Origin: an uncultured bacterium
GTDB taxonomy: Bacteria; Patescibacteriota; Patescibacteriia; UBA9570; XYC2-FULL-38-9
NCBI GenBank assembly: GCA_937996685.1
Contig: CALKUP010000015.1
Location: 7,900-71,899, forward strand
DNA length: 64,000 nucleotides
Direction: 5' to 3'
Shown here: positions 18,990 to 64,000 of the stretch, one piece after another
Layout of the letters: each line of letters opens with the position of its first letter
How positions within the stretch are numbered: the first letter of the stretch is position 1
Position numbers and translations under genes: made by a program
Notes under the pieces: generated by a model
Told to the model about the DNA's origin: nothing
The model's database searches: none
What the model saw: only the letters and a program-made list of their open reading frames with translations

Positions 18990-21900
18990 TTATTGTTTTT
19001 TCAATGCACCGCTTGATTGCACAAGCCATGTATATGATTGCTTTTTCTTGCCTGAACCAAAAGTGGTTGTGAGTTGTTTTTTCTTTACAGAGAACCCAAT
19101 ATTGAGTTTTGTATTACTTTGAATTTTGACTGTTTGAGCAGTTTTTTTCTTTAACCCATTCCCTGTTGTGAGCTGATGCGCAAAGACTGTTGCCGTCGTC
19201 TTTTTTGGAGCGATTGTGACAAAGACTGAGTCAAAATTCTTGTGCACTTTTCTGACAGAAAGTGTGTATTGTCCTTTTTGTACTGTTGCGTTTCCAAGTT
19301 TCGCTCGCGCAACCCGACGACTATTTGCAAACACGCGAATTTCTTTTCCGTTTGTCGCAACGATCCGTTTTTTATTACTTGATAACGTATAGAGAAAGTT
19401 TGCAGACGTTCCAAATGGTTGAATTGTCGCTGTTGTCGCATCACGATATGTCACAAGTAACTGGTTGTTGATTTTTTGTACAGTCGTAATGACTCCATCA
19501 TTTGTTGTTGTGACAGGTGGCGTTGTCGGAGTTTCTGTTGTCGTTCCTGGATCAGTAGCCGGCTCATCAACTGGACAACCCGTCGTCGTAAAGATCCCAG
19601 CATCTGATGTCGAGCGATTACCAGAAGTATCGGCGGATGACGCAGTATATTGATACGTTGTACATGCCGTGAGACCAGACAGCAATACAGCATGGCTGGT
19701 CACACGTGGCGCAAAGTCTACTTCTGCAGTTGTTGTCGTTGACCCGCCAACCGGACCATATGACACGCGACTTGATGACGCTTCATTCGTTGTCCATGTG
19801 ATAGTAGCTCCTGTTGTCGCTGGCGTTGCGCTCAACGCTGTAATAGCTGGGGGCGTACTATCATCCATGCCCCCAATAGACCACAGCTCTCGCCCATAGG
19901 CCTGGGATTGCGCAGTAAATACTGCTCCACCCCCAAAACCAAGTACCGTCGATGGATCGCTGCCCAATAGGCCTGGATTAATATCAGACAGCATGTATGT
20001 CCCGTTTGATGTTCCGTCTGAACGCCACAACTCTAGACCATGTGCTCCATCGTGTACTTGAAAATATAATATCCCATTGACTGCACTAAAATCACCCCAA
20101 CTCGAATTATTCGCACTTGTCACTTCTTTTACTTGAACTGTTCCTTCAGTTGTACCATCCGTTTTCCATAATTGGGGAAACCCAGATCCGTTATCGGCGG
20201 TAAAAAAGAGTGAACCGCCAACGATGGTTAAATTCCCTGGATAGCTATCACCTCCTGTGTTTTCATTGATATCTTTTACCAGCGCTGTTCCTTCTTCTGT
20301 TCCATTTGATTTCCAGAGCTCCGTGCCACCTTCATTACTATTGTATGCAGAAAAATACATCCAATCATTCAGCACAACCATACTGCTCGGCAAGGCACTG
20401 CAATCAGGACAGAGATCAACTGCGAGTACTGTTCCTTCAGTTGTGCCATCAGTCTTCCATAACTCATACTCATGAGAATCATCACTAGCAGTAAAATACA
20501 ACGTACCGTGATACTCAACAAATCCAAATGGACCACTGCCTGTACTGCCTGGGAATATATCTTTCACGAGCGTTGTTCCTTCTTCTGTTCCATTAGATTT
20601 CCACAATTCAAAACCATGAGCGCTGTCATATGCAGAAAAATATAACTCACTATTGTATGTAAATCCACCCTGGATATAGGACATTCCCTCTTCATTTACA
20701 TCTTTTACGAGCGCTGTTCCTTCGGTTGTACCGTCCGTCTTCCATAACTCGTAACTATGCGTTCCATCATCAGCGGTAAAATACAGAGCATTACCAACTA
20801 TCTTAAAATTATATGGATATGAATTATCAACTCCTGTAAAAATATCTTTTACCATTACTGTTCCTTCTTCAGTTCCATCAGTCTTCCATAGTTCGTAGCC
20901 ATGCGTTCCGTCATCAGCGGTGAAATATGTAACACCATCGAGGTAGATAAAACCGTATGGATAACTACTACCACTTGGACGAATATCTTTTAATAATTGC
21001 GTACCCTCTGCTGTGCCGTCTGATACATACACCTCTGCGCCAGTGGACGGATGTGACGCAACACCAATTAAGCGACTCCCTGCAACAATAAAATCTGCCA
21101 CACTTCCACCAGTTCCGCTGCTGTCATTTACTTCAGCGACCATGGAAAAATTATTTTCAGTGGTGCTAAATTTCCACAAACGTTGACCGCTGTCGCCATT
21201 GTCTCCGGCAAATAACAGATTCGTCCCATTTATCGTAAACCACTCTATGCCATCACCTGTTGGGTTCAGATCCTCAACCATCAATGTTCCTTCTTCAGTT
21301 CCATCAGTCTTCCATAGTTCATAGCCATGCGTTCCGTCATCAGCGGTGAAAAAGACCTGACCGTCTACAATAGTAAACATTCGTATATCCAGACTACGAT
21401 CACCTTCGTTAATATCTTTCACCAACGTTGTTCCTTCAGTTGTGCCGTCGGTCTTCCATAACTCGTAGCCATGCGTTCCGTCATTTGCAGCAAAAAATAA
21501 TGTTGAGCCAGTGCCAAAAAACATTCCCGGACTAGCATTTGCGCTGCCAGGATTAATATCTTTCACCACATAGGTTCCTTCATCAGTTCCATCAGTACGC
21601 CAGAGCTCAGAACCATTTGTACTATTTGTGAGCTGGTAATAACCAATGCCATTAAAACTATACACATCACCAATGGTAACTCCAGAGCCGATTGGTTCAA
21701 TGTTCTTAATCAAATATGTGCCACGAGCAGTTCCGTTTGTTCTCCATAACTCCCAACCATTTACACCATCATCAGCTGCAAACACCACTGTTCCATCCCC
21801 TATCTGAGTAAAGAAACAAGCATATGAACCATATGATCCCGCATTCACATCTTTCACCATACGTGTTCCGTTTGGCGTTCCATCAGTTTTCCATAACTCA

Positions 21901-24900
21901 CTGCCATTGATGCCGTCATCCGCCGTGAAATACATCACTGAATCAAACACCGTTTGCCTATCAATCCTTGCTTGGTCTTCAGGGTGAATATCTTTAATCA
22001 TTTCTGTTCCGTTTGGCGTTCCGTCAGATGCCCACATTTCTCGACCATGCACTCCGTCATCTGCTGAGAATACAATCCGACCATTCACAACATACAAAGA
22101 TTGAATTGACTCTGAATACGGACTGATTTGTTTTATAAATTCTGTCCCAGCATCTGTCCCGTCTGATTTCCATATTTCTGATGAGTCACTAAAGAACACA
22201 GAAAAATATGCGGTAGACCCAATAACCTCAATATCATTGATATACCCCTCTTCACCCGAAAATGAGCGCAAGAGAGTCGTTCCACCTGTTGTACCGTCTG
22301 TTTTCCAAAGCTCACTGTCGTCTTTTGCTTTAAAATAGGTCACGCCGTCACCAGTTGCAATGTCACCTATGTCTGCATCAGCAGGGCCATCATCAATGTC
22401 TTTTATCAACTCTGGCGTTTCTGAAGCACCTGCACTTGGACAACCATTCGTCAAAAAATATTTTGAATTACTTTGCGCTGAGTTCTCTGCAGTATCAACT
22501 GACTGCACGGTGTATCCATAATGCGTACACGGCAGCAATTCAGTCAGTACAACTGAATGACTTGTCACTCTCGGGTCTATGTCAATTTGACTTGTTGTTA
22601 TTGGCGCTTGATTTGTTGCGTGATACGACACCTCACTCGAGCTCGCCTCATTGGTATTCCATGTAATTGTTACACTTTCATCTGTAATACTTACCTCTTG
22701 CTGATAAATACTTGGGCCCGTTGTATCCGTAATACTCCCTAATACCCACGGCTCCCAATTATATTCTGGTGTATATGCTGAAAAAAATACACGGCCTTCA
22801 AAAGATGTGAAAAAAGCCGGATAACTAGAATCTACACCAGGATTCAAATCTGCAAGCTCTTGCGTTCCGCCTTCAGTCCCATCCGATACCCATGGTTCAG
22901 TTCCGTGATCGGTTGTATTCACACTAAAATACAACAAACCGTTTATTGCTGTAAGGTTTGAAAATGCATAACTCGAAACATCCGTAATGTCTTTTACTTT
23001 ATGTGTCCCACCCTCGGTTCCATCAGACGCATAGAGCTGTCGAGATCCTGTCCCGTCATCGGCAATGAAAAATAACGTATCACCAACGACTATCATCTGC
23101 TCAGGACTTGCATACGCGGTACCTGGCGCAATATCTTTCACCATGTACGTTCCACTTTCAGTCCCATCTGAACGCCAGAGCTCGACTCCAGTGTCGGTAT
23201 CTGGAGAATATATTTCAAAATATGCAATACCATTCATTGCCACAATATATGATGGCTGACCTGAACATCCACTAGAACACGCATCTTTTACCATGTATGT
23301 TCCGCCTTCAGTCCCATCTGAACGCCAGAGCTCCATGCCATGTACGCCATCATTTGTATTAAACAATACAGTTGAATCATCAATCGCCGTTAAATCATAT
23401 GGATCTCCATTGCCCGAAGGATTTGTATCTTTGACCATGTATGTTCCTTCCTCGGTTCCGTCAGAACTCCAGAGCTCTGTTCCGTTGGTGTCATCTGTTG
23501 CAACAAAAAATGCCGTATCACCAGCGTTAATGATATACGTTGGATCACTAGAGCCTGACAACCGAATATCCTTCACCAGCATTGTTCCGCTTTCAGTCCC
23601 ATCTGAACGCCAAAGTTCTTTTCCGTTTACCCCATCAGTTGCAGCAAAAAACAACATGCCATTGACGACAGTAAATGATTCAATGTCACTAGAGTCAACT
23701 CCAGTGTTAATGTCTTTTAACAAGAACGTCCCTTCAGGAGTTCCATTTGATTGCCAAAGCTCTGTTCCATGATCAGCGTCAGTGGCTGTAAAATATGTCA
23801 CACCATCGAGATAGGTAAAATGATCTGGAGCGCCGTCATTTCCAAGGTATATATCTTTCACCAGCGTTGTTCCGCTTGGCGTCCCATCAGAAATATAGAG
23901 TTCATTTCCAGTCACCGGTGACGTTGCTGAGCCAATCATAAAACTGCCCGCAGCAATAAATTGAGAACCACCATCCATTGTTGCAGTGCCACGATACAAA
24001 GACTTCACTTTCACTGTCCCTCCTTCTGTTCCGTCTGACTTCCAAAGACCTGTTCCATCGGGTCCTGTTGTACCTGCAAAAAACACGTTGGTTCCCGTTG
24101 AGCTAAATTGACCACCATATTGAAACACAACGCCGTTCGAGTACGGACTCACATCACGAATCAATGTCGTCCCTCCTTCTGTACCGTCGGTTTTCCATAG
24201 CTCATGTCCATATACCGGATCAATAGCACTAAAGACAACATCTGAACCGACCATTTGAAAATTCGATGGGTATGCATTTGAATTGCCTGGGAAAATATCT
24301 TTGACCAAAACAGTACCCCCTTCTGTTCCATTTGATTTCCAGAGCTCGCTACCATGAACGCCGTCGTCAGCAACAAAGAATACAGAATCATTATATATAA
24401 AGAAATCAAACATATTTGAACCTTCAGTACCTGGGAAAATATCTTTGACTAATACAGTACCTTCCTCAGTTCCGTCTGATTTCCATAATTCAGCACCATT
24501 TGTACCATCATTTAATGAAAAATACGCCACTCCATTATGGGCAATACTGTAATACACGGCAGAGCTTGCGCTCCCAGGGGCAATATCAGACACCAGCGTC
24601 GTCACGTCAGTATCCTTTACTGTTTTCCATATTTCAGATCCGTAATCCGGCGTGGTAGCGCTATAGAGAATCGAATCACCAATGTCAACTAAATAACCTG
24701 GATACGCCCCCCCGATGCCTGCGTATAGAGGAGCCACCATATACGTCCCTATTTCTGTTCCATCTGATTTCCAGAGCTCGCTACCATCAAATCCGTTACT
24801 TGCGGCAAAATACAACCCTGAACTCGTTGCAAGCATAGAGCTAATCCCAGAATCATCTGTTGAGAGATTAATCTCAGCAACCATCACCGTTCCACCTTCT

Positions 24901-25397
24901 GTTCCGTCTGATTTCCAGAGCTCTCGACCATGTGTATCATCTTCGGCTGTAAAAAACAGCGTCCCAGAAACATCGATCAAATCACGCGGATAACTTCCAC
25001 CACTTGTATTAATATCTTTTACTTTTACTGTCCCTTCCTCTGTTCCATCTGATTTCCAGAGCTCTTGCCCGTCACTTGAATCATTAGAAACAAAAAACAA
25101 CGTCCCGTTCGACGCTGTTAGATAATCAATATTCGCAGAACCTCCCACATTCGGATTCGCGACTAATACCGTTCCACCTTCTGTCCCATCTGATTTCCAT
25201 AACGCATTCCCATTCACACCATCATTTGTTGTGAAATAGGTTGTTGTTCCAATAGTCGTGAGATTCAAAATATCATCTGCCTCTGGAGCAGTATTCATAT
25301 CTTTAAACAGCTCGGGCGTATCATACGCAAACGCAGCTGCTGTATGAAAAACGAAGACGCTTGCAAGTACTATAGAAAATATCAGGCGCTGTATCAT
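18990..25397 (-). CDS. giant (2135 aa) secreted ELWxxDGT-repeat protein with FN3-like domains and the shared C-terminal module
   Basis: Signal peptide MIQRLIFSIVLASVFVFHTAAAFA. About 40 repeats of ~45 aa (GxELWKSDGTEGGTVLVKDIxPG...). Two FN3-like Thr/Ser-rich segments (ITWTTNEASSSRVSYGP). C-terminus VTYRDATTATIQPFGTSANF...KKRIVATNGK... is homologous to the end of 14157..17351. Confidence 0.9.
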   Translation of the reverse strand: MIQRLIFSIVLASVFVFHTAAAFAYDTPELFKDMNTAPEADDILNLTTIGTTTYFTTNDGVNGNALWKSDGTEGGTVLVANPNVGGSANIDYLTASNGTLFFVSNDSSDGQELWKSDGTEEGTVKVKDINTSGGSYPRDLIDVSGTLFFTAEDDTHGRELWKSDGTEGGTVMVAEINLSTDDSGISSMLATSSGLYFAASNGFDGSELWKSDGTEIGTYMVAPLYAGIGGAYPGYLVDIGDSILYSATTPDYGSEIWKTVKDTDVTTLVSDIAPGSASSAVYYSIAHNGVAYFSLNDGTNGAELWKSDGTEEGTVLVKDIFPGTEGSNMFDFFIYNDSVFFVADDGVHGSELWKSNGTEGGTVLVKDIFPGNSNAYPSNFQMVGSDVVFSAIDPVYGHELWKTDGTEGGTTLIRDVSPYSNGVVFQYGGQFSSTGTNVFFAGTTGPDGTGLWKSDGTEGGTVKVKSLYRGTATMDGGSQFIAAGSFMIGSATSPVTGNELYISDGTPSGTTLVKDIYLGNDGAPDHFTYLDGVTYFTATDADHGTELWQSNGTPEGTFLLKDINTGVDSSDIESFTVVNGMLFFAATDGVNGKELWRSDGTESGTMLVKDIRLSGSSDPTYIINAGDTAFFVATDDTNGTELWSSDGTEEGTYMVKDTNPSGNGDPYDLTAIDDSTVLFNTNDGVHGMELWRSDGTEGGTYMVKDACSSGCSGQPSYIVAMNGIAYFEIYSPDTDTGVELWRSDGTESGTYMVKDIAPGTAYASPEQMIVVGDTLFFIADDGTGSRQLYASDGTEGGTHKVKDITDVSSYAFSNLTAINGLLYFSVNTTDHGTEPWVSDGTEGGTQELADLNPGVDSSYPAFFTSFEGRVFFSAYTPEYNWEPWVLGSITDTTGPSIYQQEVSITDESVTITWNTNEASSSEVSYHATNQAPITTSQIDIDPRVTSHSVVLTELLPCTHYGYTVQSVDTAENSAQSNSKYFLTNGCPSAGASETPELIKDIDDGPADADIGDIATGDGVTYFKAKDDSELWKTDGTTGGTTLLRSFSGEEGYINDIEVIGSTAYFSVFFSDSSEIWKSDGTDAGTEFIKQISPYSESIQSLYVVNGRIVFSADDGVHGREMWASDGTPNGTEMIKDIHPEDQARIDRQTVFDSVMYFTADDGINGSELWKTDGTPNGTRMVKDVNAGSYGSYACFFTQIGDGTVVFAADDGVNGWELWRTNGTARGTYLIKNIEPIGSGVTIGDVYSFNGIGYYQLTNSTNGSELWRTDGTDEGTYVVKDINPGSANASPGMFFGTGSTLFFAANDGTHGYELWKTDGTTEGTTLVKDINEGDRSLDIRMFTIVDGQVFFTADDGTHGYELWKTDGTEEGTLMVEDLNPTGDGIEWFTINGTNLLFAGDNGDSGQRLWKFSTTENNFSMVAEVNDSSGTGGSVADFIVAGSRLIGVASHPSTGAEVYVSDGTAEGTQLLKDIRPSGSSYPYGFIYLDGVTYFTADDGTHGYELWKTDGTEEGTVMVKDIFTGVDNSYPYNFKIVGNALYFTADDGTHSYELWKTDGTTEGTALVKDVNEEGMSYIQGGFTYNSELYFSAYDSAHGFELWKSNGTEEGTTLVKDIFPGSTGSGPFGFVEYHGTLYFTASDDSHEYELWKTDGTTEGTVLAVDLCPDCSALPSSMVVLNDWMYFSAYNSNEGGTELWKSNGTEEGTALVKDINENTGGDSYPGNLTIVGGSLFFTADNGSGFPQLWKTDGTTEGTVQVKEVTSANNSSWGDFSAVNGILYFQVHDGAHGLELWRSDGTSNGTYMLSDINPGLLGSDPSTVLGFGGGAVFTAQSQAYGRELWSIGGMDDSTPPAITALSATPATTGATITWTTNEASSSRVSYGPVGGSTTTTAEVDFAPRVTSHAVLLSGLTACTTYQYTASSADTSGNRSTSDAGIFTTTGCPVDEPATDPGTTTETPTTPPVTTTNDGVITTVQKINNQLLVTYRDATTATIQPFGTSANFLYTLSSNKKRIVATNGKEIRVFANSRRVARAKLGNATVQKGQYTLSVRKVHKNFDSVFVTIAPKKTTATVFAHQLTTGNGLKKKTAQTVKIQSNTKLNIGFSVKKKQLTTTFGSGKKKQSYTWLVQSSGALKKQ

Positions 25398-55374: not shown

Positions 55375-55956
55375 ATGTCCGCAGTTGAAGAATTCGCCCG
55401 TAAAATGGAAGAGCTTGATGCTCAAGAAGTCCAATATACAGAAGACTTTTTTCGACGTGAGTTCGGCGGTCTCGACACACCGTTTCATCCAAATGCTGAA
55501 TCTGACACCGCAGACCTCATTCGTGACACCGGCGCTCACCTCCCAAAGACCAATATGGCGCCAAGTTACTCTGGAAAAGACATTGATGAAACCTGGCTCA
55601 CAGAAGACGCTGTTTCCTATGAAGGAGAGCTCGCAGTCGACGTTTTTCACACAGAAACAGAACTGATTATTACCTCAACAGTTGCTGGCGTCCGCAAAGA
55701 AGACCTTGATATTGATATGAATGGCGACATGATCACGATCCGCGGCATCCGACGTCCACAATTTGCTCATATCCCAGAAGATGACTTTTTTGTCCGCGAA
55801 TGCTATTGGGGCGGCTTTTCTCGCAGTATTATCTTGCCGATTGATATTCAGTATGATAAGGTCCGCGCAACACTAGAAAACGGCATTTTAACGATTGCGC
55901 TGCCGAAGGCAACACACTCAAAAAACGGGAAAATCGCCATTGAAGAAGTGTCTTAA
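55375..55956 (+). CDS. Hsp20/alpha-crystallin small heat-shock protein
   Basis: ACD motifs: ELAVDVFHTETELIITSTVAGV...GILTIALPK. Confidence 0.85.
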   Translation: MSAVEEFARKMEELDAQEVQYTEDFFRREFGGLDTPFHPNAESDTADLIRDTGAHLPKTNMAPSYSGKDIDETWLTEDAVSYEGELAVDVFHTETELIITSTVAGVRKEDLDIDMNGDMITIRGIRRPQFAHIPEDDFFVRECYWGGFSRSIILPIDIQYDKVRATLENGILTIALPKATHSKNGKIAIEEVS

Positions 55957-55984
55957 ATTACACAAGCATATATCTCCATTATAT

Positions 55985-56188
55985 ATGATGGGAACCTCAC
56001 AACGCGTTCGCGTTACTGCCATAGATGAAAACAACATCACTGTAGAAACACCTGATGGCGCTGTGTTTTCATGGCCACGAAAAAATGCCGCCAGTGAATT
56101 ACTGCCTGTTGCTGTAAATGACGAACTTGTCCTCACTCTTACCTCTTCTGACAACCTCTTAAACGATTTACTGACCAAACATGAATAA
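55985..56188 (+). CDS. DUF3006-like small protein
   Basis: MMGTSQRVRVTAIDENNITVETPDGAVFSWPRK... is my preferred start; the track ORF begins at 55895. Confidence 0.45.
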   Translation: MMGTSQRVRVTAIDENNITVETPDGAVFSWPRKNAASELLPVAVNDELVLTLTSSDNLLNDLLTKHE

Positions 56189-58220
56189 CGAAAAACCGCA
56201 TGCGCACCATGGCGCGGCACAGCATACACACGAGCATCATGAAACCGCTCATGCGCAACATGATACACCGGAAGTAACGACACATCATCACACGTCAACA
56301 CAAAAAAAACATCATACACTCAAACGAATTACCATTGTTTTCGCTGTTGTTCTTTTTGCACTACTCCTTGCAGCTGGAGCACTCGCAGCAACCATTCTTG
56401 GCGTCTACAAAGACACTGTTCTCCCCCGCACAGCCCTTGGCTCAATTGATCTTTCTGGAAAAACACTCGACGGCGCAACAGAAACCTTTACCGCTTCAGC
56501 TGATCTTATTGAACAACAAGGACTCAGCTTGCGCGTCAACGACGATCAAATCACAATCCCCGGCACCATTACCGCGGAAGATGCCGGCGGCACAGACTTG
56601 GTATTATTTGATATTGATGCCCAAAAATCAGTAGAAGAACTATTCGCTATTGGACACACCGGCTCTCCATGGGAAAGACTACAATCCGGCGTTTTACATA
56701 TTCTCTTCCCACAACATACACCAATTCATATCACCGTTGATCGAGAACAAATCACGGCTTTTCTTGATTCAGCGCTCGCAAAATATGAAGTTGCCCCAGA
56801 AAATGCAACGATTGCTATTGAGGACGGAAAAAACCTCAACATTACTCCGGAGAAAAACGGCAAAACAATCAACCGCACAACCATTATTGATCAAATCACT
56901 GATCGCCTGTACGAACTGAACCAAGACCAAATTGATGTCACCATTGAAACCGCCGTTCCTGCGCTCACTGCAAAAGATATTCAAACTCATGAAGCTGACA
57001 TTCTTGGACTCTTGCAACACACTCCGCTGCAATTGACCTATGAAGACAAAACATGGGACTTCGATGCGTCGAGTGTTGGCAGCTGGCTTATGTACACAAA
57101 AGACGGCGCATCAATAAACACTGACGCACTACGCAAAAGTCTTGATGACAAAAAACTGGATATTGAAGTTGCGCCAAAAGAAGGTAAATGGAAAGTTGAA
57201 GCCACTGACAACAAGGTCACTGCCATCACTCCGTTATCAGATGCTGTGGTTGGAAAAAAGATCGACACTGACGCGCTTGCAACAAAAATTATTCCTGCGC
57301 TAGAAAATGCAACAGACGACACTCCACGCATTGCACTCTCCCTCATTGAAGAACAACCAAAATTTGGGAACACTGACGCAAAGGAATTGCCTGTGAAAGA
57401 ATTACTCGGGACCGGACATTCAAATATGACTGGCAGCCCATATAATCGCCAACTGAATATTCGTCGCGGTGCTGATTTATTAAATGGTCTTGTCATCGCT
57501 CAAGGTGAAGAATTTTCACTCCTTGAAGCACTGAAACCGTTTAGCGAAGGCAATGGGTATCACGCTGAACTCGTCATTAAAGGGAATGAAACATTGCCGG
57601 AAATTGGCGGCGGGCTGTGCCAAGTCGGGACAACGACTTTCCGTGCTGCAATGAACGCCGGGCTTGATATCACACGACGTCAAAACCATAGCTATGCTGT
57701 CTCCTATTATTCAGATGACCGCAACGGCTTGCCTGGAACAGACGCAACGATTTATGACCCAGCTCCCGACTTTCGGTTTATCAATGACACATCGGGACCC
57801 ATTATTATTCAAACACGCATTGAAGGCACACACTTATACTTTGATTTCTGGGGCAATTCGGATGGTCGCAAAGGCGAATTTTCTGCACCGACAATTTCCG
57901 GCTGGATTCAACCACCGCCAGTCAAAGAAGTAGAAACTGACACGCTCCCAGAAGGCGGTCGGAAATGTACAGAAACTGCACATCCTGGAACAACAGCCTC
58001 TTTCAAATACACTGTCACAAAAGCTGACGGAACAACCCACGAAGAAACATTCACCTCTGTCTATAAACCATGGCAAGCTGTCTGTCTCGTCGGCAAGAAA
58101 AAAGCAGCACCAGCGCCAGCTGCTCCTGCCAAAACTGAAACAAAGAAAGACACGAAAAAGGATACGAAGAAGACTGACAAAAAAACCAATTCAAATTCAA
58201 GCACGAGTACAAAACAATAA
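56181..58220 (+). CDS. VanW-family protein (His-rich N-terminus, TM anchor, VanW domain, Lys-rich tail)
   Basis: LPEIGGGLCQVGTTTFRAAMNAGL is the VanW core motif. Confidence 0.75.
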   Translation: MNNEKPHAHHGAAQHTHEHHETAHAQHDTPEVTTHHHTSTQKKHHTLKRITIVFAVVLFALLLAAGALAATILGVYKDTVLPRTALGSIDLSGKTLDGATETFTASADLIEQQGLSLRVNDDQITIPGTITAEDAGGTDLVLFDIDAQKSVEELFAIGHTGSPWERLQSGVLHILFPQHTPIHITVDREQITAFLDSALAKYEVAPENATIAIEDGKNLNITPEKNGKTINRTTIIDQITDRLYELNQDQIDVTIETAVPALTAKDIQTHEADILGLLQHTPLQLTYEDKTWDFDASSVGSWLMYTKDGASINTDALRKSLDDKKLDIEVAPKEGKWKVEATDNKVTAITPLSDAVVGKKIDTDALATKIIPALENATDDTPRIALSLIEEQPKFGNTDAKELPVKELLGTGHSNMTGSPYNRQLNIRRGADLLNGLVIAQGEEFSLLEALKPFSEGNGYHAELVIKGNETLPEIGGGLCQVGTTTFRAAMNAGLDITRRQNHSYAVSYYSDDRNGLPGTDATIYDPAPDFRFINDTSGPIIIQTRIEGTHLYFDFWGNSDGRKGEFSAPTISGWIQPPPVKEVETDTLPEGGRKCTETAHPGTTASFKYTVTKADGTTHEETFTSVYKPWQAVCLVGKKKAAPAPAAPAKTETKKDTKKDTKKTDKKTNSNSSTSTKQ

Positions 58221-58283
58221 TAAAAAAGCTCCGATATATTCGGAGCTTTTTCTTGTGCGAGTCTCTTGTCTGTCAAACAAACG

Positions 58284-58985
58284 CTAATCAATAGCGAGTG
58301 ATCGCAATACTTTTGCTGACATGCCGTTACTCACGGCGTTCAACTGTGTGTTGAATTTTTTGTCCACTCGAACTGGATTTTCACCGTCTTCAATATTTGT
58401 TGGAACATAGTACATTTTTCCATGATCATCGCTCACGAGAACAAAATATCCTTTATAGGCTTGCTGAATTGCTTTTGCTACTGCCACTTCTTGCTTAGAT
58501 CCACCGCGACCAAACAACTGCACAAATTGTGCTTTCGTAATCATCCTCACTCCAGAGTTGCGTCCACGTGCCATTGCAAGCGCTGTTGCATCAGGACGTT
58601 TCGTTGATACTTTTTTCGCGAACCCTTCGTTCACGTAATAATAAGATTTCCCTACTTTGTACATGCCTTGTGTATACGTTTTACGCAATAGCCCAAACCC
58701 ATCACCAGTATTGACCGCATATAATTCACCACGTGAGTGCACTCGCATGACAATACTATTTTCATAGCGAGCAATAATTGGATCGCAGAACGCACCATTT
58801 GACACCTTCACCGCATTTTTTGGCGCATGATCATGATAACAATGCGCGGATTTCAATTCCGTGTATGTTTTTTCTGAAATCGCCACAGTGTTTACTGGTG
58901 GTGTAATTGTTGACGCAGACGCTGTAACAGGAAGAATCATTCCAACTGTCAGCCCTGTAAAAAGGATCGTTTTTGTAAAACGCAT
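58284..58985 (-). CDS. secreted hypothetical protein
   Basis: Signal peptide MRFTKTILFTGLTVGMILPVTASA. No recognised domain. Confidence 0.55.
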   Translation of the reverse strand: MRFTKTILFTGLTVGMILPVTASASTITPPVNTVAISEKTYTELKSAHCYHDHAPKNAVKVSNGAFCDPIIARYENSIVMRVHSRGELYAVNTGDGFGLLRKTYTQGMYKVGKSYYYVNEGFAKKVSTKRPDATALAMARGRNSGVRMITKAQFVQLFGRGGSKQEVAVAKAIQQAYKGYFVLVSDDHGKMYYVPTNIEDGENPVRVDKKFNTQLNAVSNGMSAKVLRSLAID

Positions 58986-59065
58986 ACTATACTGTTTTGA
59001 TGAATAAAATATGTACAGCTCTTGTACATCAGTGTAAACGACAAAACAGGGAAAATGTTACACCG

Positions 59066-60430
59066 TTATTGAACAGCCGGTGGATAGGCATCATACATCA
59101 ATAATTGACCGGTTTTTGTACCATCGATGAGCATATCAAATCCAATTGATTTTCCAGCAATTTCGCCAATCATGCGATAAACTGGCTTCAAATACACTCC
59201 TTCGCTTGATTGTGTTTTTTCGGTCAGCATTTCATATTCCAAGTGAAAACCAGTTGGCGCAAACGTTGCCGGTTGTCCAAAGCCTACTGCTCCGCCTGTA
59301 AATGGCTCTGCAAACAAGAATCGTTTTGGATACACACCTAATCCAGAATTTTCTCCAAACGCACCTTTTTTCCATTCAGCTAAAAACTGATTGTATGCAT
59401 CGTTTGCTGAGAGCATCTCAACATCTTTCACCGCATCTCCTTTTTGAATCATTGTTCCAACTAATACTCGCAACCGACCATCAATCACAACCGCAGACCA
59501 ACTACGCTGTTTGCTGACAATACCATCAATTGTATAGTCTGGTGGGTACAGCAGATATTGCGCGCCTCCAACAACACCCGCAGGCGGCGCTGCAACAGCA
59601 CTCTGAATTTGTTCCGCTGTTGTTGCGTATAATTTCGCGAGCAACTCTTTCGCCTCTTGTTCTCCGTTTGCTGCTGCAACATCCGCTGTTTGCGAAAACC
59701 GAACAAAACCACTTGGTGATAACACGATACATTTTTGTGTCGGGGAATTTTCTGAGAACGCACACGCCAATGGATCTGCGCCAGTTTTTTGAATCGGGGC
59801 GTTGACGAATACCTCATTTGAAAATGGATCAACTACTACTCCAAATAACTGCTCTGTAATTCTAAACATTGCCGCACGATCTTTCAGCTCAGCGTCTGTT
59901 GCCGTGCGTACAGTAAACACTGTAGCAGCACGCGCATCTTGCGCATCTTGCGCTTCTGGCGTGAAGGCCGCAAACGCCCATTTCGCTGTATTCATTTCCA
60001 GCGCACCGCCGCGTGCAATTGTTGCATCTTGATACGCACTGTAATCATATTCCCGTTTTCGTGGCAATGCAGATTGCGCAATCACTGGAGCTGTCACCGT
60101 CTCATTTACTGGGATATTTGCATTGTTTGTATTCACAGCATCATTTGATGGGGTATTCACTTGTTGTGCGATTTCAGATGTCGGCGTCGCACGAGACAAG
60201 ATAACACCGAATCCAATAACAACAATTGCCGCGGCTCCAAGCGGGATAAAAACCATGCGCTGTTGAAACAATGATACAAACTTCTCCCATTGAGACGAGA
60301 CTTTCGACTCTTGCGGCTTCTCCACCTGCGTTGCCAAAATGGATTCCAACATCGCCGCCTTCTTCTGTGGGGTTAAACGCTCTGATCGACGAGCACTACT
60401 CTTTAATTGTTCTTCAATATTATATTTCAT
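59066..60430 (-). CDS. putative membrane-anchored anti-sigma factor with a large extracytoplasmic domain
   Basis: Starts just before the end of the ECF sigma gene (MKYNIEEQL...). Short cytoplasmic N-terminus, one TM (MVFIPLGAAAIVVIGFGVIL), ~380-aa external domain. The track start 60484 was rejected. Confidence 0.5.
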   Translation of the reverse strand: MKYNIEEQLKSSARRSERLTPQKKAAMLESILATQVEKPQESKVSSQWEKFVSLFQQRMVFIPLGAAAIVVIGFGVILSRATPTSEIAQQVNTPSNDAVNTNNANIPVNETVTAPVIAQSALPRKREYDYSAYQDATIARGGALEMNTAKWAFAAFTPEAQDAQDARAATVFTVRTATDAELKDRAAMFRITEQLFGVVVDPFSNEVFVNAPIQKTGADPLACAFSENSPTQKCIVLSPSGFVRFSQTADVAAANGEQEAKELLAKLYATTAEQIQSAVAAPPAGVVGGAQYLLYPPDYTIDGIVSKQRSWSAVVIDGRLRVLVGTMIQKGDAVKDVEMLSANDAYNQFLAEWKKGAFGENSGLGVYPKRFLFAEPFTGGAVGFGQPATFAPTGFHLEYEMLTEKTQSSEGVYLKPVYRMIGEIAGKSIGFDMLIDGTKTGQLLMYDAYPPAVQ

Positions 60431-60947
60431 ACTCTTTTTGTAATCGATCAATTGCACGAGACACTGCAGTTCGAATCGCGCCACTCTTCTTTCCTAGAAT
60501 ATGACCAATTTCTTCGAACGACAAATCTTCAATATACCGCAGCTCGAGCATTTCTTGCACTGACTTTGGCAAGACTCCAATTTTCTTCCAAAGCAATTGA
60601 ATATCCATCTGCGTCATAACCGTATCACTGCGGTCATCTTGTAATTCAAGTGCGTCAACATCAACGACGATTGCGTGCTTACGATAATAATCAACACACA
60701 ATGAACGAGCAACTTGATACAAGTACGCCGAATATGGATACCCTTGCCACGAGAAACGCGACAATTGAGTAAATGCTCGCGTGAATAATTCGGCCGTCAT
60801 ATCTTCTGCCGTTTCAGGATTTTGACCTGTCCGAAAATACAAAAATTGATACATTCTATCAATGTATTTTTCATACAACACAGCAAAGGCCTGCGGGTCT
60901 TGCTGGGCCGCGAGAATCAATTGTTGATCTTCGTGAGCTTCATTCAT
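60420..60947 (-). CDS. ECF-subfamily RNA polymerase sigma-70 factor
   Basis: Sigma-2 region (FAVLYEKYIDRMYQFLYFRTG) and sigma-4 (ELRYIEDLSFEEIGHILGKKSGAIRTAVSRAIDRL). Confidence 0.85.
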   Translation of the reverse strand: MNEAHEDQQLILAAQQDPQAFAVLYEKYIDRMYQFLYFRTGQNPETAEDMTAELFTRAFTQLSRFSWQGYPYSAYLYQVARSLCVDYYRKHAIVVDVDALELQDDRSDTVMTQMDIQLLWKKIGVLPKSVQEMLELRYIEDLSFEEIGHILGKKSGAIRTAVSRAIDRLQKEYEI

Positions 60948-61011
60948 ACGATGGCTTGCACTATCCTAAACGCAGTATACAAGAAAATGTTACAGCCACC
61001 TATCAGCCAAA

Positions 61012-61224
61012 ACAAAAACACTCCCGAAAAGGAGTGCTTTTTTTGATCAACACAATTCAGTAGGCAAGAGAATATCAAATTGGACGATTCGAGCCGTAGC
61101 CTGAGTTCTCCAACAGTGAGGTTCCCATGCTTGTCGTGCCTACTGGATTGTAGTGACCAAGCGTGTGTACATTCTGTGAAATGAGCTGTCTCAATCGCTG
61201 TCTGACTGGTGTGTCATACTGCGA
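61012..61224 (-). ncRNA. candidate ~200-nt non-coding RNA (6S-like or novel sRNA) with its own promoter and terminator
   Basis: Minus-strand TTGACA (61254-61259) -17 nt- TATAGT (61231-61236). No ORF over 17 codons. The transcript ends at the GGAGTG/CACTCC hairpin plus U-run (61019-61045). Internal 13-bp long-range stem CAATCCAGTAGGCA / TGCCTACTGAATTG. Confidence 0.4.
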
Positions 61225-61359
61225 CCCAGAACTATATGCCAAACAACGAGATTTGTCAAGGAGTGCTTTACGGCATTCTGTGTATAATCCTAATTTTTGG
61301 CTATTTTTAGCAAAATATTAGACAGCTTGTTATCCCCATGCTATACTATTCCCATATTT

Positions 61360-62406
61360 ATGGCTATTGACCTCATACCTCTACCGATCACTGAACCTGT
61401 AGAGCAACCAGAAGATACTTCCATTGAACAGACCTTGCGCCCTCAAGAGTTAGACTCTTATATTGGCCAAGAAACCGTCAAACAGAACCTCCAGATCATG
61501 ATGAGCGCCGCAAAAAAACGCGGACAACCACTTGATCACATTTTGCTTCATGGCAGTCCTGGGCTCGGGAAAACAACCCTGGCGCATATTATTGCACACG
61601 AGATGGGCGTTGGGATTCGCGTCACTTCCGGCCCTGCCATTGAACGCGCTGGCGATGTCGCGGCTATTTTAAGCGCACTACAACCAAATGATATCTTGTT
61701 TATTGATGAAATTCATCGCCTGCACAAAGTTGCGGAAGAAATCTTATATCCAGCAATGGAAGATTACGCACTTGATGTTGTGACCGGTAAAGGCCTGGCA
61801 GCTCGGACACTGCGCATTGATTTACCACGCTTTACAATTATCGGCGCGACCACTCGCATGTCGTTAATTTCCGCTCCCTTGCGTGATCGATTTGGCGTCC
61901 ATTATAAATTGGAGTTTTATTCAACCGCGGAAATGGAGACGATTATTCGTCGCACCAGCGATATCCTCGGCATCACCATTGATACAGAAACGGCACATGT
62001 CATTGCAACCCGTAGCCGAAAAACGCCACGCATTGCCAATCGGTTAATGAAACGCGTCCGGGATTACGCGGAAGTGCATAATAATGGCGTGATTACACCT
62101 GAAACAGCTGTTGCAGCCTTAGAGCTACTCCATATCGACGCGCTTGGACTGGATGACGTTGATCGCAAAATCCTTGAAACGATTATCACGCATTATCAAG
62201 GCGGCCCTGTTGGCCTTGGCACACTCGCCTCTGCCACCGCAGAAGAACAAGAAACCATCGAAGAGGTCCACGAACCATATCTCTTGCAAATCGGCATGCT
62301 CTCTCGCACACCGCGCGGTCGCATGGCAACAGCGCAGGCATGGAAACACCTTGGACTCACGCCTCCCGCAGATAACGCGCAACAAGGAAGCTTGCTCGCC
62401 GAATAA
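61360..62406 (+). CDS. ruvB: Holliday junction branch-migration ATPase RuvB
   Basis: [11 protein letters not shown]...[19 protein letters not shown]...[11 protein letters not shown] and a C-terminal winged helix. Start moved to the ATG at 61360 (track 61297). Confidence 0.9.
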
Positions 62407-62445
62407 ACCGTTGAGTCAGGCGCAGTGTAGTGGTATACTATTTTT

Positions 62446-62727
62446 ATGCAAGTCCCATTTTGGATATTATTAATCCCCTATATTTTTGGGATTATCGCCT
62501 TCACATTTTGGATGATTATCAATGTGTATCATCTCATTAAATTTGGTTTTTTTGATTTCACCGGGAAAATCACACTCCTTATTTTCGGCGCTCTCGCATT
62601 GATTGTCGTTGGTTTTTCCATCCTCTTTTTATGGAACACGCCATGGACCAGTACATTTAATATCTGGGATATCCCGAGCGCGCTGATTCCATTGCCGCAA
62701 AAATACAACCCAACATTGATTCAATAG
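62446..62727 (+). CDS. small 2-3 TM membrane protein, hypothetical
   Basis: 93-aa hydrophobic ORF. Confidence 0.5.
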   Translation: MQVPFWILLIPYIFGIIAFTFWMIINVYHLIKFGFFDFTGKITLLIFGALALIVVGFSILFLWNTPWTSTFNIWDIPSALIPLPQKYNPTLIQ

Positions 62728-62730
62728 CAT

Positions 62731-63474
62731 ATGCCTGGACTTGTACAACACACACCATCCCGCTTCAGTGAACACGAAGAACTCCGCTTTCCAACCCAGC
62801 GTCCGAATGAACACGTCGTTTTGTTATTGCGCCGTCATTGGACGATTATCGCAAAAGACGTCATTCAACTCGTTCTCGCTCTCTGTTTTTTACCGATTTT
62901 ACTTGCTGTCTTATTACTCTACTCAGACTTCACACTCTTTCCTGGAACTCTCAGCTTCGTGATTACAATTGAAGTCTTGAGTTTATATATTATCTTTGCG
63001 TTTTTATTTTATTTTGATTCATTTGTTGATTATCATTTAGATATTTGGGTTGTGACTGACGGCCGGATTGTCAGCATTGAACAAAACGGAGTATTTCGTC
63101 GCATTGTTTCAGAGCTCAATATTTTGCAAATGCAAGATGTGACATCTGAAGTAAACGGTTGGTTGCAAACCTTTCTGGATTTTGGACAAGTCTACATTCA
63201 AACTGCTGGTGAAAAACAACGCTTTGTTTTTGAAGAAGTCGCTCATCCATCCGAAGTTGCGAAAGTCATTCTACAAGTCCATGATCGAGCGGTAAAAATG
63301 CGTGACATCGCACAAGCGCGTGATCAATTGGCCTATGAGCAGGTTTACGAACAAGCTCAAACACAAACGCAAGTCCCAACGGCCGTTCCCCCGATGAACG
63401 TTGCGGAACACCAAAAAACAGTTGAACACCGCTCACGTTTACACATGCTGATGCACGATAACGATGCTGAATAA
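62731..63474 (+). CDS. bacterial PH-domain (YdbS/YdbT-like, DUF304) membrane protein
   Basis: Two TM helices followed by a bPH_2-like domain (IWVVTDGRIVSIEQNG...GQVYIQTAG). Confidence 0.55.
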   Translation: MPGLVQHTPSRFSEHEELRFPTQRPNEHVVLLLRRHWTIIAKDVIQLVLALCFLPILLAVLLLYSDFTLFPGTLSFVITIEVLSLYIIFAFLFYFDSFVDYHLDIWVVTDGRIVSIEQNGVFRRIVSELNILQMQDVTSEVNGWLQTFLDFGQVYIQTAGEKQRFVFEEVAHPSEVAKVILQVHDRAVKMRDIAQARDQLAYEQVYEQAQTQTQVPTAVPPMNVAEHQKTVEHRSRLHMLMHDNDAE

Positions 63475-64000
63475 CGATACCTTCCCCATTCAATTTACAC
63501 TCCCTGACGAGTTGATTGCACAGGCACCCGTTTCTGGAACACGGGACCAATCTCGCCTACTGGTTGTTGAGCGCAATACGAAACGACTTGAGCACACACA
63601 GTTTTTTGATATCACACGTCACCTCAAAGCCGGTGATTTGTTGGTTGTGAATAATTCAAAAGTTATTCCAGCTCGGCTATTTGGCCAAAAAACAACCGGC
63701 GGGCATGTGGAAGTGTTTTTACTCAGACCACTAGCTGGAGCAACCCAATCTGACACCCAGGAAACCTGGGAAGCAATGATTCGTTTTCGGGGTGCTAAAG
63801 CTGGAATGTCTTGCTCAATTTTGGACGCGACAAACAACCCAGTTGATGGCGCAGGCGTCACACTGCTTGAAAAAATATCAGAAAAAACCTGGTCTGTTGA
63901 AATTCACAGCAGCGCAGGCAGCAGCGTTCGCGACCTCATTGAACAGTGTGGGCACATGCCAATTCCGCCGTATATTGATCGCTCGGGCATGTCAGAACAA
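63464..64000 (+). CDS. queA: S-adenosylmethionine:tRNA ribosyltransferase-isomerase QueA (N-terminal part; continues beyond the window)
   Basis: Manual translation gives MLNNDTFPIQFTLPDELIAQAPVSGTRDQSRLLVVER...GDLLVVNNSKVIPARLFG...GHVEVFLL. Absent from the track because it is edge-truncated. Overlaps the previous gene by 11 nt. Confidence 0.8.
   Translation, partial: MLNNDTFPIQFTLPDELIAQAPVSGTRDQSRLLVVERNTKRLEHTQFFDITRHLKAGDLLVVNNSKVIPARLFGQKTTGGHVEVFLLRPLAGATQSDTQETWEAMIRFRGAKAGMSCSILDATNNPVDGAGVTLLEKISEKTWSVEIHSSAGSSVRDLIEQCGHMPIPPYIDRSGMSEQ

Follow-up and report, generated by a model that had tools for sequence, protein, structure and literature searches.

Among described RNAs, those closest to the element reported here are 6S RNA, the RNA of the signal recognition particle (SRP), the Y RNAs and the nadA (NAD+-I) motif. 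The element lies on the minus strand of a 64,000-nucleotide stretch of DNA from an uncultured bacterium of the Patescibacteriota (GenBank assembly GCA_937996685.1, contig CALKUP010000015.1, positions 7,900 to 71,899), which we refer to as the window, and it is predicted to be a gene for a rod-shaped RNA of about 215 nt. 6S RNA (RF00013, with a short Flavobacteria variant, 6S-Flavo, RF01685) resembles it in being a free-standing rod with a central unpaired region between long imperfect helices, and in occurring as paralogue pairs; Firmicutes, for instance, have 6S-1 and 6S-2. Unlike 6S RNA, the element matches no model, its loop is one-sided (10 nt against 1) and invariant throughout the phylum, its conserved unit spans 110-128 nt, and it also exists in a composite form with two rods.

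SRP RNA (4.5S; RF00169) is likewise a single hairpin, about 110 nt long, whose internal loop is asymmetric (long on the 5' side, 1 nt on the 3' side), and has its own promoter and terminator. The present element differs from it in lacking a GNRA loop, the symmetric loop and the helix-8 consensus, in the distance of its loop from the apex, in the absence of a model match and in its tandem copies. The Y RNAs (Ro-associated; bacterial Yrl), compared here by description only, share a length of about 100 nt, an end-to-end stem, a conserved bulged protein-binding site and a U-tail, whereas the neighbourhoods examined here contain no rsr (Ro) gene and the element has no tRNA-like domain and no sequence similarity to them. 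The nadA motif has two similar bulged stem domains in tandem, as the element does in some lineages; however, it is a cis-acting 5' leader, while the gene downstream of our element is usually convergent, and there is no Rfam match.

Patescibacteria, also known as the candidate phyla radiation (CPR), account for much of bacterial diversity; their genomes are about 1 Mb in size, and most of them have not been cultured. To our knowledge, their non-coding RNAs beyond rRNA, tRNA, RNase P, transfer-messenger RNA (tmRNA) and SRP RNA are essentially unexplored. Here we describe a new RNA family that is widespread in this phylum.

Structure and conservation

An initial annotation of the window, made from its sequence, had proposed a 6S-like or novel small RNA at this locus and had named structural conservation in relatives as a check. 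Such conservation is present, as covariation in two alignments. The first, A1, consists of 60 non-redundant copies with less than 88% identity, to which a 39-pair rod was fitted. With this structure, derived from A1 itself and then scored on it, 89.3% of the cells were paired, compared with 75.0% in column shuffles (none of 500 reached the observed value) and 40-60% when the partners were slid by 1-3 columns. Double-change cells numbered 306 against 105 expected, and compensatory changes were observed in 26 of the 39 pairs. A covariance model, R1, was built from A1, and a second set, A2, which includes 20 extra paralogues, was aligned with it. A2, which like other model-fitted alignments is biased towards its model, gave 90.7% paired cells, where shuffles gave 72.7% and sliding the partners gave 35-58%, with compensatory changes in 28 of the 39 pairs. 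In the closing helix P1, changes on both sides were seen in 13 of 18 pairs (A1); its inner part was paired in 99.2% and its outer part in 78.4% of cells (A2). Because of the slid-partner control and the independent paralogues, we regard the predicted rod structure as secure.

When applied to the window, R1 gave a single match in 64 kb, scoring 89.8 bits (E = 2.6e-24) on the minus strand compared with 14.5 bits on the plus strand. This difference between the strands, together with the conserved G·U pairs, indicates that the feature acts at the level of RNA and is strand-specific. All features of the family are present at this match: the series P1-GGCA-CGACAAGCAU-GGRRA...UUYUC-U-UGCC-P1', the apical G·U/G-C box, and a promoter and terminator of its own. 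The rod is a hairpin of about 48 bp in which P1 is followed by a GGCA/UGCC clamp, a one-sided bulge, a stem rich in A/U and G·U pairs, and an apical stem (Table 1). The 13-bp long-range helix pointed out in the initial annotation, CAATCCAGTAGGCA / TGCCTACTGAATTG, proved to be real; its 13 pairs include one C·A mismatch, and it lies within a 30-nt inverted repeat (61043-61072 / 61131-61160) and within the minimum free energy (MFE) fold. The predicted transcript of about 215 nt folds at -74 kcal/mol (z = -4.9), an energy matched by none of 200 dinucleotide shuffles, and the fold is dominated by a single long imperfect hairpin at 61160-61043. All 60 sequences of A1 gave z scores of -3.9 or below, with a mean of -7.8.

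The bulge has a mean predicted unpaired probability of about 0.8-0.99, and the strand facing it is predicted to be paired (unpaired probability about 0-0.4). Its register is fixed by the pair directly after it, which covaries between G-C (28), A-U (10) and G·U (3) in A2. On the raw MAFFT alignment, RNAalifold recovered P1 alone apart from a pairing of the bulge with UUUUC; this pairing was excluded, as the same post-bulge pair covaries from G-C to A-U. At the other end of the rod, the apical G·U pair was found in 59 of 60 sequences in A1 and 44 of 45 in A2, and the adjacent G-C pair in 54 of 60 and 45 of 45, respectively. The closing apical pair covaries between C-G and U-A, and the loops vary (UACG, UCCG, UUCG; 5-7 nt).

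Table 1. Features of the RNA gene and its surroundings, in window coordinates
Feature	Position	Strand	Basis
-35 hexamer, TTGACA	61254-61259	minus	promoter scan
-10 hexamer, TATAGT	61231-61236	minus	promoter scan
5' leader, about 60 nt; length variable, weakly kept across the family	61166-61224	minus	family comparison
Conserved rod domain, the unit that defines the family	61038-61165	minus	covariance model R1
P1, 5' strand, terminating in the GGCA clamp (61140-61137)	61137-61160, partner 61043-61066	minus	MFE fold and inverted repeat
One-sided 10-nt bulge CGACAAGCAU, facing a single U (61067)	61127-61136	minus	comparison and pairing probabilities
Apical domain P2-P5	61068-61126	minus	alignments A1, A2
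P2, GGGAA pairing with UUCUC; variable, covarying A/U-rich stem beyond	61126-61122 with 61072-61068	minus	alignments A1, A2
Apical stem-loop GGC-UACG-GCU; G·U 61101·61092, G-C 61100-61093	61092-61101	minus	alignments A1, A2
3' core: unpaired U (61067), UGCC clamp (61066-61063), P1 3' strand	61043-61067	minus	fold and alignments
Separate intrinsic terminator, hairpin and U-run	61005-61041 (hairpin scored 61041-61014)	minus	terminator scan
Upstream copy of 12-nt repeat AAGGAGTGCTTT; end overlaps -35 hexamer	61258-61269		repeat search
Downstream copy of 12-nt repeat AAGGAGTGCTTT; one arm of the terminator	61029-61040		repeat search
Candidate ECF-type promoter, TGTAAC-N16-CGT (tentative)	60970-60994	minus	read from sequence

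Distribution of the family

Relatives of the locus were fetched as contigs or loci, which carry L-numbers below. The RuvB protein encoded next to the RNA in the window is at most 64% identical to those of Uhrbacteria, Buchananbacteria and other Patescibacteria metagenome-assembled genomes (MAGs). Orthologues of the extracytoplasmic function (ECF) sigma factor encoded on the other side of the RNA show 46-58% identity, and the RNA core was found upstream of four of them (L081, L082, L085 and L087; 49-58% protein identity). In these four it reads AGGCACGACAAGCAUGGGAA, about 52 nt, then AUUCUCUUGCC, as in the window; the closing stem shows compensatory change from CAGUAGGCA/UGCCUACUG to CAGCAGGCA/UGCCUGCUG, and the apical loops of the sigma-linked copies are UACG, UCCG and UUUUUU. 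L084 and L088 retain just the 3' end of the RNA, in front of the sigma gene and at the edge of the contig. The orthologues in L083 and L086 have no RNA element; in these two, the sigma gene is directly adjoined by a different gene. Two more remote Patescibacteria MAGs, L008 and L012, have the core beside ruvB, differing at one of 19 nt; in L008 it is present as two tandem copies. In both MAGs a convergent gene comes next and there is no sigma gene in the vicinity.

A gapped exact pattern of the core matched at least 120 metagenome contigs, once each, including contigs of 0.33-0.98 Mb, and was absent from 2.9 million viral contigs. Sigma orthologues, ruvB neighbours and metagenome contigs are thus three independent ways by which the core was reached. 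By means of R1, 20 further tandem paralogues were recovered that fall outside this DNA pattern, with CAUAGG for CAUGGG and UUUGUC for UUGCC. Copies are single or in a tandem pair, two at most. A repeat of the repetitive extragenic palindromic or miniature inverted-repeat transposable element type, or another mobile element, was rejected on the basis of one copy in 64 kb, one exact match per contig, no more than two copies in tandem and none in viruses.

The bulge CGACAAGCAU is identical in the members found independently of the pattern, namely both copies of L008, L012, L081, L082, L085, L087 and the 20 paralogues. The longer CACGACAAGCAU is likewise identical in every pattern-independent copy, including 19 of the 20 paralogues; in the remaining paralogue, a clamp base is changed just before it.

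In one lineage (L118 at 2147-2574, L106, L130, L145 and about 16 other loci), two paralogous rods lie 220-400 nt apart. A long-range inverted repeat of 23-25 nt, whose sequence differs between L118, L106 and L130, encloses the second rod and a linker, in which GUCACCUUCCA and UUUGAGAAAAUUUUUAUCUC are conserved at variable spacing. This arrangement suggests that the tandem rods may form one composite RNA of about 450 nt.

Four of the fetched entries, L008 (CAYGFD010000026.1), L001, L019 and L050, are titled 'uncultured Gammaproteobacteria'. Their RuvB is nearest to that of Patescibacteria, and L008 carries two copies of the Patescibacteria RNA; the taxon labels of these third party annotation MAGs are probably wrong.

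Comparison with known RNA families

The window and 16 loci of the family were scanned against Rfam 15 (4227 families) at gathering thresholds, and the only matches were tRNA and rRNA elsewhere. At E <= 10, two members (window 60900-61400; L102 1000-1260) gave no 6S and no SRP match (RF00169, RF01854); the noise matches obtained, rnk_pseudo (24 bits, with the cutoff at 55), rimP and rliA, align to the terminator alone. A likeness of CGAC/AAGCAUG to tmRNA motifs had raised the possibility of a tmRNA or tRNA, which was rejected, as ARAGORN reported nothing at the window locus or the 16 family loci. Full-text searches of the literature, among them one with the core sequence itself, and papers on bacterial non-coding RNA discovery or SRP yielded no description of the element. 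Of the two identities first put forward, that of a novel small RNA has stood up, the element being conserved, covarying and outside any Rfam family; membership of the 6S family has not, there being no model match and no two-sided bubble.

It may nevertheless be asked whether the RNA is functionally the 6S RNA of Patescibacteria, that is, an open-promoter mimic which would bind the sigma-70 holoenzyme and use the bulge as the template for a short product RNA. The general form speaks for this, with two long helices around a central unpaired region, a weak G·U/A-U stem 3' of the bulge, a very strong promoter of the housekeeping type, a window transcript predicted at about 215 nt, and two paralogues in some lineages. 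In addition, no canonical 6S RNA was found in about 200 kb of Patescibacteria DNA scanned against Rfam. The closing-stem and central-bubble architecture expected of 6S RNA was not borne out, since in the internal loop 10 nt on the 5' strand face 1 nt on the 3' strand, and pairing is predicted for the latter strand. Further, not even a sub-threshold 6S match was obtained, the conserved unit is short at 110-128 nt, and the bulge does not vary across the phylum, whereas 6S bubbles vary between phyla. We therefore consider a functional 6S RNA unlikely, and the analyses made here give no specific pointer to a 6S-like function, i.e. to binding of RNA polymerase.

A highly divergent SRP (4.5S) RNA would share several traits with the element: one hairpin about 110 nt long, an internal loop that is conserved and strongly asymmetric, a single copy per contig and a housekeeping appearance. 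A regular expression for the canonical SRP helix-8 motif found no instance in 1.5 Mb of sequence, a sample too small for this to be informative, and tblastn with E. coli Ffh found no ffh gene in the same DNA. The detailed anatomy is of a different kind: the apical loop is variable and not GNRA, the symmetric loop and the GGAA/AGCA motif are missing, the 3' strand carries no AGCA, and some 26 bp lie between the conserved loop and the apex instead of the two being adjacent. With tandem paralogues and a two-rod composite also occurring, and no SRP model matching at E <= 10, an SRP RNA is very improbable.

Promoter, terminator and coding potential

The minus-strand promoter TTGACA-17-TATAGT named in the initial annotation was recovered by the promoter scan with 11 of 12 matches, and it is the top-scoring site within 59000-64000. 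Transcription is predicted to start near 61224, about 7 nt past the -10 hexamer. The promoter is a property of the family: TTGACA-16/18-TATAxT, with at most two mismatches, was found upstream of the core in 32 of 35 examinable members. In 30 members the promoter ends 36-113 nt ahead of the core (GCACG), while one other had a weaker match and two had none. The spacing from the -10 hexamer to the core is widely spread between members, and when the leader of the window was compared with those of L081, L082 and L087, the sole common stretch was TTCTGGGTCG after the -10 hexamer, shared with L082.

The scan likewise confirmed the rho-independent terminator. It has 12 pairs and a loop of 4 followed by a U-run, about 190 nt downstream of the promoter, and is bidirectional, as the plus strand scores too. 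The 3' end of the RNA is predicted near 61008. In most members, including L081 and L082, a U-run follows P1 directly, so that the rod itself doubles as the terminator.

The motif that had been noted at both ends of the unit, GGAGTGCTTT, is confined to these two sites (61031 and 61260) in the whole 64 kb (expected 0.15; none of 100 shuffles reached two). The full direct repeat is in fact 12 nt long, AAGGAGTGCTTT, and its copies, spaced 229 nt apart, flank the promoter and RNA unit. Among the other examined members with an identified promoter, none has flanking repeats of this kind. Deleting one copy together with the 229 nt between would still leave the whole terminator hairpin, and for this reason the pair has the appearance of a scar left by an insertion or a duplication.

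As a separate observation, the window has a DnaA box, TTATACACA, at 61279-61287 (minus), in the opposite orientation to the boxes of other members. The DnaA-box consensus (TTATNCACA / TGTGGATAA) occurs within 60 nt upstream of the -35 hexamer in 7 of 37 non-redundant members, about 0.14 being expected. The carriers include L102, L094, L098, L099 and L121; five of the seven are closely related, and L099, L196 and the window are apparently separate lineages. Over the whole window, 5 boxes were counted against 3.2 expected, which is no enrichment. The RNA may be under DnaA-dependent control.

The claim that no open reading frame (ORF) in the unit exceeds 17 codons is correct only if the count is limited to ATG starts within the transcript. 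It misses a 55-codon ORF at 61075-61242, the only one above that length in the ORF listing, which begins with TTG. Its start codon precedes the predicted start of transcription; Pfam gave no match for it, and it is not kept in relatives. A small protein might instead start from the AUG in the bulge (MGTSLLENSGYGSNRPI in the window), as in many members ORFs of 5-30 codons follow this AUG, which lies within AAGCAUGG. It is replaced by AUA in many tandem paralogues, and neither length nor frame is kept; one L008 copy has 5 codons, and L082 is put out of frame by an apical loop that differs by 2 nt in length. Since, in addition, substitutions compensate for pairing and are not synonymous, and there is no Pfam match, this explanation can in practice be set aside.

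Genomic context

The initial annotation was silent on the fact that the RNA and the ECF sigma gene (60420-60947; Sigma70_r2/r4) share a strand, the sigma gene being downstream, about 65 nt beyond the RNA terminator, and a leader role therefore had to be tested. On such an account, the RNA would be a cis-acting leader or attenuator, similar to a riboswitch, which controls a sigma/anti-sigma operon through terminator read-through. The arrangement is not confined to the window: the RNA lies on the same strand upstream of the sigma gene in L081, L082, L085 and L087 as well, with its 3' end in the same place in L084 and L088, and in L085 the distance from the U-run to the start codon is just about 35 nt. 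Against this, the sigma orthologues of L083 and L086 do without the RNA. Among the 120 matches listed, the nearest downstream ORF was convergent in 99, on the same strand in 11 and absent before the contig end in 10. In L192, which has the same RNA subtype, the RNA faces a convergent gene of the VanW cluster directly and there is no sigma gene.

The window itself also separates the two units. The full terminator is followed, before the ATG of the sigma gene at 60947, by a candidate ECF-type promoter which resembles the autoregulated ECF promoters of the B. subtilis sigma-X/W type. This candidate is weakly conserved, with GTAAC found in L081 and L082 and its -10 part not. From the terminator and the candidate promoter we tentatively consider the sigma gene a unit separate from the RNA.

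Three genes lie between the RNA and the VanW gene in the window: the sigma gene and two others, of 472 aa and 233 aa; the 472-aa gene has no Pfam match and is likely to encode an anti-sigma factor. A comparison of the window (55375-60947) with L081, L082 and L192 gave a conserved order of Hsp20, a small ORF, VanW/PG_binding_4, the RNA and ruvB. In L082, a gene with a NAGPA domain lies additionally between ruvB and the RNA. Given this kept synteny and the absence of the sigma gene in L192, the comparison indicates that the sigma module was inserted between the RNA gene and VanW in the lineage of the window. As most members have a convergent gene downstream, the evidence from context is that the RNA is a gene of its own and not the leader of the ECF sigma gene, an alternative that we consider extremely improbable.

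More generally, 35 of 60 non-redundant loci have a member of a VanW / PG_binding_4 cluster as the gene downstream of the RNA, and a 72-aa gene and Hsp20 often come after it. The upstream partners vary and include RNase J and TsaD (identified by Pfam), UvrB, RuvB and a YchF-like GTPase (read from sequence), and a Metallophos_2 gene followed by an ORF of about 75 aa. In the largest group, the RNase J gene has its own terminator, which precedes the RNA promoter. The window has the same frame, with Hsp20, a 97-aa gene and VanW (56181-58217, plus strand) on one flank; on the other flank, ruvB (61360-62406), which is divergent from the RNA, comes with a 93-aa gene, a bPH_2 gene and queA.

The longest ORF for ruvB starts from a TTG at 61297 and would overlap the divergent promoter region. 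The ATG at 61360 is preceded by a promoter, TAGACA-17-TATACT (61319-61347, with TG), and is the more likely start. Elsewhere in the window, which is otherwise compact and made up of small genes, there is a minus-strand ORF of 2135 aa at 18993-25397.

Discussion

The boundaries of the gene, its strand, its structure and conservation, its independence from its neighbours and its absence from known families are matters of observation, and we are highly confident of the gene and its structure. From these we infer an action in trans, the docking of a protein and a housekeeping role. The region 61005-61259 (minus strand) is a free-standing gene for what is predicted to be a highly transcribed structured RNA, made from its own promoter of the sigma-70 type and ended at P1 and a U-run in most members, or at an extra hairpin in the window. 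The rigid rod would serve as a scaffold that displays the invariant bulge CGACAAGCAU, and probably the apical G·U box too, and a conserved partner in the cell would dock at the bulge in a sequence-specific way. The RNA could then function in trans as a housekeeping ribonucleoprotein or as a protein decoy, much as 6S, SRP or Y RNAs do. One candidate partner, and the most specific, would be RNA polymerase, for which the anatomy gives no direct support.

A protein is the partner that fits best, because sequence and geometry are both conserved and because the nucleotides of the bulge never vary while the helices around it covary freely. The bulge could also be read as the seed, CGACAAGCAU(GG), of a base-pairing regulatory RNA that would control translation or decay of mRNAs or act on a stable RNA. 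This reading agrees with the fact that the most conserved stretch is predicted to be single-stranded, and a promoter, a structured body and a terminator with a U-tail are typical of trans-acting small RNAs. With RuvB diverged to about 60% identity, a seed without variation would, however, call for a target that is just as constant, and no such target was found: against E. coli 16S, 23S and 5S rRNA, the best bulge site (16S nt 53-63, with a 2-nt central mismatch) reached -13.1 kcal/mol, no better than shuffled bulges, with a mean of -14.3. Nor would base pairing explain the conserved apical G·U/G-C box and the geometry of the rod. An antisense role is thus, in our opinion, decidedly unlikely, somewhat more so than a functional 6S RNA.

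The following points weigh against a trans-acting docking rod or against the evidence for it. The rod was scored on the alignment from which it had been derived. The invariance of the core among the metagenome matches, at least 120 in number, is partly forced by the search pattern, so that its real basis is the approximately 28 copies reached by other routes. The transcript and its ends are predictions. Clustering of neighbouring ORFs across the 60 loci returned the conserved synteny (VanW, Hsp20, RuvB) and no candidate for an RNA-binding protein. Finally, in some lineages two rods occur in an RNA of about 450 nt, and a simple docking rod may therefore be too simple a model. Taking these together, we find the complete explanation, a free-standing RNA gene of a new family that acts in trans as a docking rod, to be moderately probable, and the docking mechanism taken by itself a tentative proposal of close to even standing.

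The RNA is likely to do something central to the cell, because it is a single-copy or tandem gene with a consensus promoter, kept in streamlined genomes, and because a dozen of its nucleotides are invariant in organisms whose RuvB proteins are about 60% identical. It is possible, and we put this forward tentatively, that it is a phylum-wide, uncatalogued housekeeping RNA of the CPR, either the equivalent of 6S RNA with a reduced, one-sided 'bubble' or a subunit of a new ribonucleoprotein, with a two-rod form of about 450 nt in some lineages. For the family, a covariance model, a defined structure and candidate contact sites, namely the bulge and the apical G·U box, are now available, and the model enables the annotation of this RNA in thousands of metagenome-assembled genomes.

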